The translations under genes and the position numbers were made by a program. A stretch of 45,340 nt of DNA, taken from the IMG/VR virus record IMGVR_UViG_2537561977_000033; one strand, given 5' to 3'. A model generated the notes under the pieces. It saw only the letters and a program-made list of their open reading frames with translations, had not been told where the DNA came from and made no database searches. This DNA comes from a virus (Duplodnaviria > Heunggongvirae > Uroviricota > Caudoviricetes). Below are positions 29,176 to 32,541 of the stretch, piece by piece (positions within the stretch are counted from its first letter, which is position 1; each line of letters opens with the position of its first letter).

Positions 29176-29537
29176 TTGATTTTATTAGTAACAAGTATTT
29201 TTATATTTTAATAATATATTTAAAGCAGATAATAAAAAACCCGCCTGAGCGGGTTTGAGATTGTGGTGCTTTTTGTGGGAGTCATCCACTTACGCACTTT
29301 GTTTTGCCATGCCAGCAGTTAGCTTCTGCTGTAAAACTATTCATGCAGCAAACCTGCACTTCACCACAATGGTTAGCATACTTTTCCTGATTAAGATTTT
29401 GCCAAATATGCTAGCCATTGTTTCATGTATTGGACCTCCTTACTTTTTATTAAAGAGATCCAATATTCACTACTCTGTCCGTATCTCTACTCAGGCATCA
29501 GCCTTCTTCGTTATCGTATACAGACGAGCGATGAATT

Positions 29538-29753
29538 TTAATCAGTAATGATGACATTTGCTGCTGCAGGACCTTTAGCACCACTCTCTATAGAGAAGGT
29601 AACCTTTTGACCTTCAAATAAGGTTCGATAATTATCATTCTGAATCGCAGAAAAATGCACAAACACATCTTTACTACCATCAACAGGAGAAATAAAGCCG
29701 AAACCTTTATCAGCGTTAAACCATTTTACTAAACCAGTCATTTTATTTGACAT
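29538..29753 (-). CDS. cspB: cold-shock protein (CspA family), 71 aa
   Basis: [51 protein letters not shown]... matches my memory of CspB. Confidence 0.8.
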
Positions 29754-30052
29754 TCTACATTCCTTAACTTGAGCCTTTCGGCATAAATGGTTTGCATAAC
29801 AGAAACGACTTCGTACTTAATTGGAGAGACTCAAAGAAGGAATAAGTGAATAACACCTGAAATGAGAACTGCTTTAGTAAACTACTTCGTATATCGTCTG
29901 TTCTTCAAACCGACGCAATCATTAACGCATAGTTGAACATATGAAGCAATGTTTATTTTAGACATCCAGCCGTCTTCAACCCCATCAAAAACTATAGCTT
30001 TCTTCAGGAACGTGTGTATAGTGCGCCAAGTTATCAGTATTAAGGAATTTTT

Positions 30053-30265
30053 TTGTCCCGTAAAATGACAGGAATTGTCAAAACCTTTGACGGCAAAAGC
30101 GGCAAGGGTCTTATCACCCCATCCGATGGTCGTATCGATGTCCAGCTTCATGTTTCAGCGCTCAATCTCCGCGATGCAGAAGAAATTACCACCGGATTAC
30201 GCGTGGAATTTTGCCGGATAAATGGTCTGCGTGGCCCTTCAGCTGCCAATGTTTACCTTTCATGA
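30053..30265 (+). CDS. cspF: cold-shock-domain protein, divergent CspF/CspH-type, 70 aa
   Basis: [44 protein letters not shown]...[18 protein letters not shown]. Confidence 0.75.
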
Positions 30266-30556
30266 GCTATATTAAAGCTTTAATTTCAGGCCCCATCGGA
30301 TCACACATGGAGAGTTTTTATGAATAACCCCGTCTGTCTTGATGACTGGTTGATTGGCTTTAAAAGCTTATGCTGTACTTTGGCCGTAATAGCTCTGCTA
30401 ATAATATAATAAGCAGACTCATTGTGTTTAGGGGCATTGTACTGGAAGAAAACATTTTAAACATCAGGCAAATAACCAAGTCACCAGCTAAATAATAAGT
30501 TAACAGACATGAGTCCCGGGATGAGATTCAACATTACCATTGCCCCATTTAAAGCA

Positions 30557-30584
30557 CAAAACCCGCTCATCAGCGGGTTTTCTA
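30557..30584 (-). terminator. hairpin terminator candidate (tR'-like) downstream of the putative late promoter
   Basis: Perfect stem AAACCCGCT/AGCGGGTTT with a 5-nt loop; T-rich on both sides. Confidence 0.4.
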
Positions 30585-30619
30585 CTTTTTCTTAACGTCG
30601 GGTATACAAAGCCCATCGT

Positions 30620-30655
30620 TGAAAAAATTTTATCCATATTTTTTGAAAAATGCAA
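30620..30655 (-). promoter_or_regulatory. candidate late promoter pR' (sigma-70) just downstream of Q
   Basis: Minus strand TTGCAT (30650-30655), 17-nt spacer, TAAAAT (30627-30632); 32 bp after the Q stop. Confidence 0.4.
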
Positions 30656-30686
30656 ACATCATGTCGCCATCTTCAGCAAAAATCAT

Positions 30687-31439
30687 TTATCTCGTCACCT
30701 TCCTCAATTGCGCTTCCGCGTATGCTTCTTCCTGCCAGCACTTTGTTACCAGTTTACCAATGACGTCCGCATACCCCTTATACCACTGATAATCGGTCAG
30801 GTCTGGTACCAGCTTCTGGACATGACGTCGTGCCAGCGTGGTCGGTAAACGACTAAACCGGTTTCCATTACAACGCCCACAAATCTTATATACCGGTACG
30901 CCATGAAACCGGGTTCTTTTTTCATCCAGAACAATCCCTTTACCCTTACACCCTCTGCACGCTGTGCTGGCTTCGCCCTTACCATGGCAATGCTGACATA
31001 GTTCCTTCACCCATTCTTCCTTGATTACAGATTCCCCGCGTCTGTAGTGTTTCACCACTTCGCGCAATACATTATAAAATCCCGTACCTGAACAATGCTC
31101 ACAGCGAGCCTTACTTGCCGCAGACCTGGAGTAATCAGCAAAGGCAAAACTCACGAGGTAAGGAATAATCTGTAACCGGATTTCTTCACTCAATTTGTTC
31201 AATGTCGGGTTATCCAGTGCCATCGCGTAATTTAGCAGGCCTTCAATCGCAAACTGAGGGTCCTGAACACCAACTTTTGCCAGAAATAAGGCCAACCCAA
31301 GTGGTGCTTTCGACTGCACCATCCCCTGCGCTGCCATTACATCCGTAATTGTTAAACAACCGGTGCCTGTCGCTGGAGCGTCATCGCTCAATTTTGGAGA
31401 TTTTGGGGAGTAATATTTTGGTAAGGCTTCAAGGTTCAT
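30687..31439 (-). CDS. quuQ: late-gene antiterminator Q (phage 82/21-type), ~250 aa from the internal Met
   Basis: Cys-rich zinc-binding region (CEHCSGTGF...CQHCHGKGE...CRGCKGKG...CGRCNGN); position before the lysis genes; start MNLEALPKYY avoids overlap with the upstream gene. Confidence 0.75.
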   Translation of the reverse strand: MNLEALPKYYSPKSPKLSDDAPATGTGCLTITDVMAAQGMVQSKAPLGLALFLAKVGVQDPQFAIEGLLNYAMALDNPTLNKLSEEIRLQIIPYLVSFAFADYSRSAASKARCEHCSGTGFYNVLREVVKHYRRGESVIKEEWVKELCQHCHGKGEASTACRGCKGKGIVLDEKRTRFHGVPVYKICGRCNGNRFSRLPTTLARRHVQKLVPDLTDYQWYKGYADVIGKLVTKCWQEEAYAEAQLRKVTR

Positions 31440-31452
31440 GCTCGTTCTCCAC

Positions 31453-32541
31453 TTACGCCAGTACGCCAATTGCCAGCGCGCGATCGATAAAACGAAATAT
31501 CAGCTCCAGTTGGGAGCCATACTTATCTTCAAATGCCACTGTATCCGTATGCAGCTCGTTGTGATGCTTTCTGCACAAAGGCAACACAAAGAGATCATGT
31601 GCTTTTGTTCCCATTCCGCCCTGCCCGTGACCAATCAGATGATGCGGATCGTCGGCTGGCATACCGCAGCAAGCACACGGCTGTGTCTTAACCCAACGTG
31701 TGTATTTCTCCTTAACCCAGCGGCGACGTTTAGGCAGCTTCATGAAAGATTCCGGAGACTCTGGATCAACGGTGATGCTTACCACCGTCTTTTCCTGTGG
31801 TGATTTTTGTTGCTGGTGGGCGTAAGGCAACGGTGCAAGATTTTTTGTGCGTTGTTTCAATATTCTGGTGGCGGTCTGCTCTCCCGGTACGATGTCGCTT
31901 TCGCGGTACACCGAGCAGATTTTTTCCGCTGGTAATCCCAGCGAACGACGCGATACAGCCTCAGGTAGTGCATCCACCACCTGATTGCAGACCGCCCACC
32001 AGGATAATTCAGCCAAAGATAATTCCCGCTCCTGCGTACCGCTTATTGCGTGACGGATGACGTCAATCACCCATGCTGTCAGATTTTGTTGAGCAAGCAG
32101 CTCCAGTGATTCCGATGTCTGGTCACGCAGTTGGTTGTCGCAGTGCCAGCACAACACCATTGCGCCGGTACCATAACGGTGAATGACTGTTTCAGTGTGA
32201 TGGTAATCGCCATTAGGCCACTGGCAGGATGTAACATGACGTAATAGCCAGTCGGACAATGCGCCAACGCCGCCAGCAGCACGAATCACCCGTTCGTTAC
32301 TAAAAAACGGCAGCAATGTTTTGTCTTCCGCCAGCGGCTGGCGAACGGCAGGAACGACTCCGGATGGCAGATTACGCATGCTTTTTGGTTCCGGTTCCAC
32401 CAGCACTCGAGGATTATGAAATATCTGTATGGATTCACGGCCCGGCTTAAGGACCACCAGCCCAAGCTCAGGCACCAGAACAGGTCTAAGTAATACCCGC
32501 ACGTTACCTCCAGATCCGTTGCTGGAAAGTGCGGGACGCAC
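31453..32541 (-). CDS. ydfU: DUF968-family protein with C-terminal HNH-like Cys/His motif; start uncertain
   Basis: C-terminus ...PCACCGMPADDPHHLIGHGQGGMGTKAHDLFVLPLCRKHHNELH; upstream of Q as ydfU is in K-12 Qin. Confidence 0.55.
   Translation of the reverse strand: MRPALSSNGSGGNVRVLLRPVLVPELGLVVLKPGRESIQIFHNPRVLVEPEPKSMRNLPSGVVPAVRQPLAEDKTLLPFFSNERVIRAAGGVGALSDWLLRHVTSCQWPNGDYHHTETVIHRYGTGAMVLCWHCDNQLRDQTSESLELLAQQNLTAWVIDVIRHAISGTQERELSLAELSWWAVCNQVVDALPEAVSRRSLGLPAEKICSVYRESDIVPGEQTATRILKQRTKNLAPLPYAHQQQKSPQEKTVVSITVDPESPESFMKLPKRRRWVKEKYTRWVKTQPCACCGMPADDPHHLIGHGQGGMGTKAHDLFVLPLCRKHHNELHTDTVAFEDKYGSQLELIFRFIDRALAIGVLA

Follow-up and report, generated by a model that had tools for sequence, protein, structure and literature searches.

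The late-gene control cassette of lambdoid phages is laid out in the literature as a Q gene followed by the promoter pR', a pause element, a terminator and then the late genes. In phage lambda, the Q site is placed between the -35 and -10 elements of pR', and the promoter reads TTGACT, 17 nt, TAAATT, TGACTC, AACGATGGG; in the record of phage phi80, too, the Q site is annotated between -35 and -10. The AACGAT of lambda is a -10-like element that sigma-70 re-binds, causing the pause at +16/+17 where Q loads (PMC9191641). Throughout, we take lambda +1 as the first A of AACGAT, a numbering that was checked against the pause motif T+14 N Y+16 G+17 (PMC9191641). Q proteins belong to three unrelated families, namely PF03589 (Q-lambda), PF06530 (Q21) and PF06323 (Q82) (PMC9388147). 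Short terminated RNAs made from pR' are known for lambda (6S RNA), 21, phi80, 82, P22 and the Stx phages (StxS) (PMC7547250). In the literature we found no description of a late promoter of the Qin type or of its RNA.

The DNA analysed here (the window) is 45,340 nucleotides long (IMG/VR record IMGVR_UViG_2537561977_000033) and represents an E. coli lambdoid prophage of the Qin type. Over positions 30300-30900 its identity to the cryptic prophage Qin of E. coli K-12 is 99.8%, and over positions 30480-30760 it matches phage PhiR42_1 at 100%; from promoter to terminator there is no difference between the window and K-12, in which the coordinate (NC_000913.3) equals the window position plus 1,611,802. 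The 601-bp stretch 30300-30900, which spans the intergenic region downstream of Q, was matched in 2,309 of 5,426 complete E. coli genomes. We regard it as very probable that this segment is the prophage's cassette for late-gene control and follows the plan of the lambda cassette.

The gene order is in keeping with such a cassette. On the minus strand, ydfU (31453-32541) is followed by Q, the intergenic region, cspB, a holin gene, ydfR, lysozyme and Rz, with cspF (30053-30265) and ynfS (30320-30409) lying before cspB on the plus strand, opposite to Q. The holin is of the phage-21 type (PF04971), and in an intact relative Rz is followed by terminase and then by head genes; lysis and morphogenesis genes are thus found on the Q strand, downstream of the candidate terminator. 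Lambda has the same order of Q, promoter, pause element, terminator and lysis genes, whereas in the window the terminator is separated from the holin gene by cold-shock genes, of which one is convergent. The leader of cspB (29522-29914, minus strand) matches the Rfam cspA thermoregulator RF01766 with 158.8 bits, as expected, and late transcripts from pR' would consequently cross a structured cold-shock leader as well as running antisense to cspF. In several E. coli strains (e.g. NZ_CP166722.1) the 601-bp promoter region is split by an IS1A insertion, which could separate Q and pR' from the late genes.

The Q gene of the window (30687-31439, minus strand) is of the quuQ/ydfT type, encodes 250 amino acids and is named ydfT, putative antitermination protein Q, in RefSeq. 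Its assignment rests on Pfam and on structural homology: the product matches PF03589 (Antiterm) with E = 3.6e-54, together with a DnaJ CXXCXGXG domain, and is homologous over its full length to Q-lambda (PDB 7ubm; E = 4.6e-36), with residues 1-120 and 160-250 aligned. A protein of the Q-lambda family is therefore encoded directly upstream of the promoter, and lambda Q/qut/pR'/tR' is a system of the same PF03589 family. The initial annotation had proposed the qut regions of phages 82 and 21 for comparison. This choice was abandoned because the Q proteins of those phages belong to the different families PF06323 and PF06530, with other Q-site positions and architectures; phages 82 and 21 are functional analogues of the element in the window and not its relatives, and lambda, P22 and phi80, all with PF03589 proteins, are the fitting comparators. 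Relative to Q-lambda, the Q protein of the window carries an insertion of about 43 amino acids, which adds CXXCXGXG zinc-finger repeats to the ‘arm’ region that contacts DNA. Four such repeats, which give the match to the DnaJ central domain, lie in residues ~113-193 (~30861-31103, minus strand); in the same place Q-lambda has a single zinc-ribbon ‘arm’ that touches the Q site and sigma region 4. The enlarged arm, together with a promoter spacer unlike that of lambda, suggests an altered site recognition.

The predicted promoter lies just 3' of Q. It had been described as a near-consensus sigma-70 promoter on the minus strand with the hexamers TTGCAT and TAAAAT and a 17-nt spacer. The hexamers are present as described, at 30655-30650 and 30632-30627, respectively; the term ‘near-consensus’ is apt for the -10 element, which agrees at five of six positions, but not for the -35 element, which agrees at three of six (TTG only). 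The -35 element, whose first base follows the Q stop codon by 31 nt, differs from the TTGACT of lambda but is invariant in ten aligned phages, and the identical hexamer is annotated as the -35 of pR' in the phi80 record. The -10 element reads TAAGAT in most relatives. Six nucleotides past the -10 (TTTTTC in the window, occupying the place of TGACTC in lambda) begins AACGATGGG, consisting of AACGAT at 30615-30620 and GGG at 30612-30614; the 9-mer and its distance from the -10 are the same as at pR' of lambda and of P22, and the 17-nt spacer length is likewise shared with lambda. By the geometry of lambda pR', transcription would start at A30620, and AACGAT would then occupy +1 to +6, so that a -10-like pause element is found, by sequence and by position, in the initially transcribed region. 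This element had not been mentioned in the initial annotation.

It should be noted how much weight each of these motifs can bear. In a generic scan of 2.5 kb, sites resembling promoters or terminators were only roughly twice as frequent as expected from shuffled sequence, and promoter and terminator motifs by themselves are therefore weak evidence; the scan reported the promoter as a 9/12 match in a different register. The composite pattern TTG-N20-TANNNT-N6-AACGAT is another matter: this promoter is its single occurrence in the 45 kb, and none of 100 shuffles contains it. AACGAT is invariant in 28 of 28 Qin-type variants, which follows from the construction of the search, and also in the ten independently aligned phages. 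The lambda pause motif T+14 N Y+16 G+17 is absent from that position in the window, where TTTG is found at +11 to +14, and the pause position may for this reason differ from that of lambda. The supplements of a genome-wide study of sigma-70 pauses, searched by gene name, coordinate prefix and sequence, have no entry for the locus, which is a weak negative.

Between the hexamers, the spacer TTTTCAAAAAATATGGA (30633-30649, minus strand) is a putative Q-binding element. Thirteen of its 17 columns are invariant across the ten phages, and it is better conserved than the adjoining Q coding sequence, as would suit a protein-binding site. It is identical to the lambda spacer, TATTGAATAAAATTGGG, at 11 of 17 positions. 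Being 97.6% conserved among phages with this type of Q and unlike the spacers of lambda and phi80, it fits the expectation for a site specific to this Q, as far as can be judged from alignments. Between the end of Q and the -35 lies a further block, GATGGCGACAT (30661-30671, minus strand), which hardly varies among Qin-type phages; lambda and P22 share it (GATGGCAACAT), the lambda copy standing 10 bp, or one helical turn, farther from the -35. HK225-like and Erwinia-phage-like relatives have, in a gap of 40-60 nt between the Q stop and the -35, an inverted repeat that abuts the -35 (AGCTCA...TGAGCT, GCCTG...CAGGC or GCCCA...TGGGC, for example) and whose arms vary compensatorily between phages. 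No such repeat abuts the -35 in the window.

Downstream of the promoter, a perfect-stem hairpin had been reported some 40-60 nt away, and it is indeed found 46 nt past the -10, beginning at +40 of the predicted transcript. The hairpin (30558-30581), identified by scanning and folding, is AAAACCCGCT-GATG-AGCGGGTTTT and can be drawn with 10 bp and a 4-nt loop (GAUG in the RNA) or with 9 bp and a 6-nt loop. On the minus strand it is flanked by an A-rich tract upstream and by TTTTGTGCTTT downstream, with GTGCTTT following the hairpin, and it would act there as tR'; on the plus strand it is a plausible terminator for cspF-ynfS. The minus-strand U tract, UUUUGUGC (30554-30561), is interrupted, and relatives have 5-7 U. 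Evidence for termination in vivo comes from the Term-seq data for K-12, in which a minus-strand RNA 3' end of the class ‘orphan’ is mapped at NC_000913.3 position 1642356 (Adams et al. 2021, PMC7815308, Supplementary file 1). This coordinate, checked base by base, is C30554 of the window, 8 nt past the stem, in the flanking sequence ...GAGCGGGTTTTGTG[C]TTTAAATGGG; in that table the 3' end is nucleotide 51 of 61, a convention that was verified on sgrS. In two growth conditions the 3' end received 103,591 and 55,368 reads, a level similar to or higher than what the table gives for established small RNAs such as sokC (66,698) and sgrS (6,222) (PMC7815308). The position is not among the Rho-dependent regions (PMC7815308). 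An intrinsic terminator, with a GC-cored 10-bp hairpin, a U tract and a mapped 3' end, thus lies between the promoter and the late genes, and the abundance of the 3' end in uninduced K-12 is compatible with an active pR' promoter. A second minus-strand Term-seq 3' end, seen in one growth condition, is located 168 nt downstream at 1642188 (window ~30386), 9 nt past a weak stem TCTGCT...AGCAGA. Read-through or RNA processing could account for it, and it suggests that the first terminator is leaky and allows some read-through.

With a mapped 3' end at C30554 and an assumed start at A30620, the predicted pR'-tR' leader RNA (30554-30620, minus strand) would be about 67 nt long and would be the counterpart of the lambda 6S RNA, which at 194 nt is considerably longer. 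Folding of a 76-nt leader sequence gave -30.4 kcal/mol (z = -6.1), a stability reached by none of 200 shuffles, and in the minimum free energy structure a stem-loop at the 5' end precedes the terminator. For the leader, NC_000913.3 lists no RNA and no regulatory feature, and a search of Rfam returned no family for it, the sole overlapping match (throat-1, E = 0.86) being far below threshold.

Conservation was assessed in an alignment of ten phages with this type of Q, comprising SfV, Ayreon, a Stx2c phage, 2H10, two Salmonella phages, mEp460, 720R4, Tritos and the window. Conservation in this region is highest at the promoter and pause elements: mean column identity is 100% for the -35, 97.6% for the spacer, 95% for the -10, 100% for +1 to +9 and 97.5% for +10 to +17. 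The corresponding values are 87% for the last 31 nt of the Q coding sequence, 74% for the linker, 89% for the hairpin and 59% after the T tract. A first scan for related loci had returned only relatives of at least 94% identity; diversity was obtained by tblastn on phage records and by scans seeded with the Q proteins of HK225 and an Erwinia phage. The 88 loci of the Qin type reduce to 28 distinct variants, all of which have the hairpin in the same place, while the DNA past the T tract is found in many unrelated contexts. Since the hairpin is kept where the downstream DNA switches context, the boundary of the module lies just past the terminator. The same or a nearly identical module is present in the plaque-forming phages SfV, mEp460, Ayreon, 2H10, Tritos and PhiR42_1, with lysis and head genes downstream. 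A ‘terminator’ is annotated at the homologous hairpin in the records of SfV and Ayreon, and the phi80 record has a terminator after Q. Covariation in the terminator stem is minimal (one of 17 pairs compensatory by RNAalifold), as the sequences are close relatives.

The hairpin has, in addition, a second face. On the plus strand it is followed by the T-rich tract CTACTTTTTCTTAA (30582-30595), the scan predicts a plus-strand terminator at 30558-30581 with the tail CTACTTTTTC, and cspF and ynfS converge on it. The A/T flanks for termination in both directions are thus present, although only the minus-strand 3' end appears in Term-seq at 37 °C. The A-rich upstream flank (AAGAAAAAGTAGAAAA), which gives the plus-strand tail UUUUCUACUUUUUC, is confined to the cspF-bearing lineage of Qin, 2H10 and Tritos, and in the same lineage the minus-strand U tract is down to 4-5 U from 6-7 U. 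The hairpin is therefore plausibly bidirectional in the cspF-bearing lineage, where it probably also stops the convergent cspF-ynfS transcript. It looks as if, in this lineage, the terminator of the Q module has been remodelled into a two-way terminator.

This dual arrangement raises the question of whether the hairpin might be solely the plus-strand terminator of cspF-ynfS, next to promoter-like hexamers that arose by chance. The convergence of the two genes on the hairpin, the T-rich tail (TTTTCTACTTTTTC) and the predicted plus-strand terminator are all as this explanation would have it, but phages that have this Q module and lack cspF, and whose downstream genes are on the Q strand, retain the hairpin right after the same promoter, from which it follows that the hairpin belongs to the Q module. 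Moreover, it is the minus strand that carries the mapped 3' end, and the Term-seq list (37 °C; PMC7815308) has no plus-strand 3' end at the hairpin, while chance is a poor explanation for a composite promoter-pause pattern that did not arise in 100 shuffles. An exclusive role in cspF termination, which the initial annotation had named as the finding that would undo its proposal, is contradicted by the minus-strand 3' end and by the cspF-less phages; we rejected it as very unlikely. Even less probable, to the point of being negligible, is that the region codes for a small protein. A 51-aa open reading frame (30500-30655, minus strand) is listed, and automatic annotation places a hypothetical protein at the equivalent position in PhiR42_1 (PV340562). 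Its TTG start, however, lies within the -35 hexamer and hence upstream of the predicted transcript start, and the frame continues across the terminator. Among relatives the leader varies by indels of 1-2 nt and the sequence past the T tract is unrelated, and the frame is not annotated in K-12. It is almost certainly an annotation artefact.

A less easily dismissed explanation is that the hairpin ends the early operon containing Q, the mapped 3' end then deriving from transcripts that read through from ydfU and Q, and that in this prophage the promoter-like sequence does not work. In favour are the weak -35 and the cryptic state of Qin in K-12; in addition, neither Kim 2012 nor the SMRT-Cappable-seq data have a mapped transcription start at the locus. 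Against this, the -35, the spacer, the -10 and the pause element are the most conserved part of the region and have exactly the geometry of lambda pR', and such conservation of its columns is unexpected for a dead promoter. The module is also present in viable phages, which need late transcription, and the abundance of the 3' end in uninduced cells is as would be seen with a constitutive pR', in line with the general behaviour of such promoters (PMC7547250). We consider an operon terminator beside a silent promoter improbable, and return to the late-promoter cassette, for which the initial proposal of a Q-modified promoter with a short terminated leader is borne out by the Q gene upstream, the offset of AACGAT, the minus-strand 3' end and the late genes downstream.

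The late promoters of other phages in the Q-lambda family support the comparison with lambda. The same layout follows Q in P22 and, in near-identical form, in HK225, SF6, a Stx2a phage and phi80 (with AACGCT in the last), the terminator being 40-200 nt farther on. The short leader of the window has parallels in P22 (gene 23) and phi80 (gene 17), both with Q proteins of this family, in which the terminator lies ~40-65 nt from the start. These Q proteins are just 33-37% identical to that of the window, and their Q-site sequences are unlike that of the window. The record of phi80 has the -35, Q site, -10 and terminator annotated in a matching layout, and phi80 shares with the window not only the TTGCAT -35 but also the end of the spacer, ...AAAAACTGGATAGATT; it differs in having AACGCT instead of AACGAT.

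Among the terminated RNAs of such promoters, StxS (Sy et al. 2020, PMC7547250) is likewise a constitutive short RNA that ends just past an antiterminated late promoter in the lysogen. StxS arises from a 258-nt precursor that is processed by RNase E, and it binds Hfq (PMC7547250). It ends in a long U run, whereas the RNA of the window ends in UUUUGUGC, which is a poor poly-U tail; tight Hfq binding would be less likely for the latter.

The transcript of the window is predicted to begin with a stem-loop (30594-30620, minus strand; AACG.GGG ... CCC.CGTT), present in both the minimum free energy and the centroid folds. Its arms are the first 4-5 nt, i.e. part of the pause element, and (T)CGTT ~13-20 nt downstream. 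The stem-loop is retained in 20 of 20 variants, in which the changes are confined to one-sided exchanges between wobble and Watson-Crick pairs. Lambda, too, has a 5' AACG(A)...(T)CGTT stem. We surveyed 82 distinct pR' starts of the Q-lambda family, including those of lambda and P22: CGTT is present in 42 of 47 leaders of the AACG type and TGTT in all 35 of the AACA type. Within the latter, AACAG pairs with CTGTT and AACAA with TTGTT. The outer pairs thus covary across the wider family, in few clades and through perhaps three independent events. It looks, from these comparisons, as though the pR' transcripts of the Q-lambda family share a conserved 5' stem-loop, of which we found no description in the literature examined. 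It is conceivable, if rather unlikely, that the ~67-nt RNA is an abundant small RNA of K-12 that is functional in its own right, as StxS is, and that its 5' stem-loop serves in antitermination or in the stability of the leader RNA.

By analogy with lambda, the cassette may be envisaged to work as follows. The sigma-70 promoter pR', 31 nt past the Q stop codon, would initiate minus-strand transcription near A30620, and sigma-70 would re-bind the -10-like AACGAT that makes up +1 to +6, leading to a promoter-proximal pause of RNA polymerase. Without Q, the polymerase would escape from the pause and stop at the hairpin and U tract, releasing an RNA of ~67 nt with its 3' end at C30554. With Q, binding of the protein in the spacer between -35 and -10 would allow it to load on the paused polymerase and render it resistant to the terminator; the modified enzyme would then pass the hairpin and transcribe antisense over cspF, into cspB, the genes for holin, lysozyme and Rz, and the head genes.

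The element is an expected, textbook-style part of a lambdoid prophage and comes as no surprise. Its description completes the annotation of a very common prophage module of E. coli, and it accounts for an ‘orphan’ Term-seq 3' end of K-12 as that of the counterpart of lambda 6S RNA. It also identifies lambda, and not phages 82 and 21, as the proper experimental comparator. With its bigger zinc-finger arm, its different spacer and its short leader, the system is a natural variant of the Q-lambda family for studies of how Q recognizes its site. Finally, the same module is found upstream of toxin or late genes in Stx2c- and Stx2k-converting phages, where read-through from the late promoter controls toxin output.
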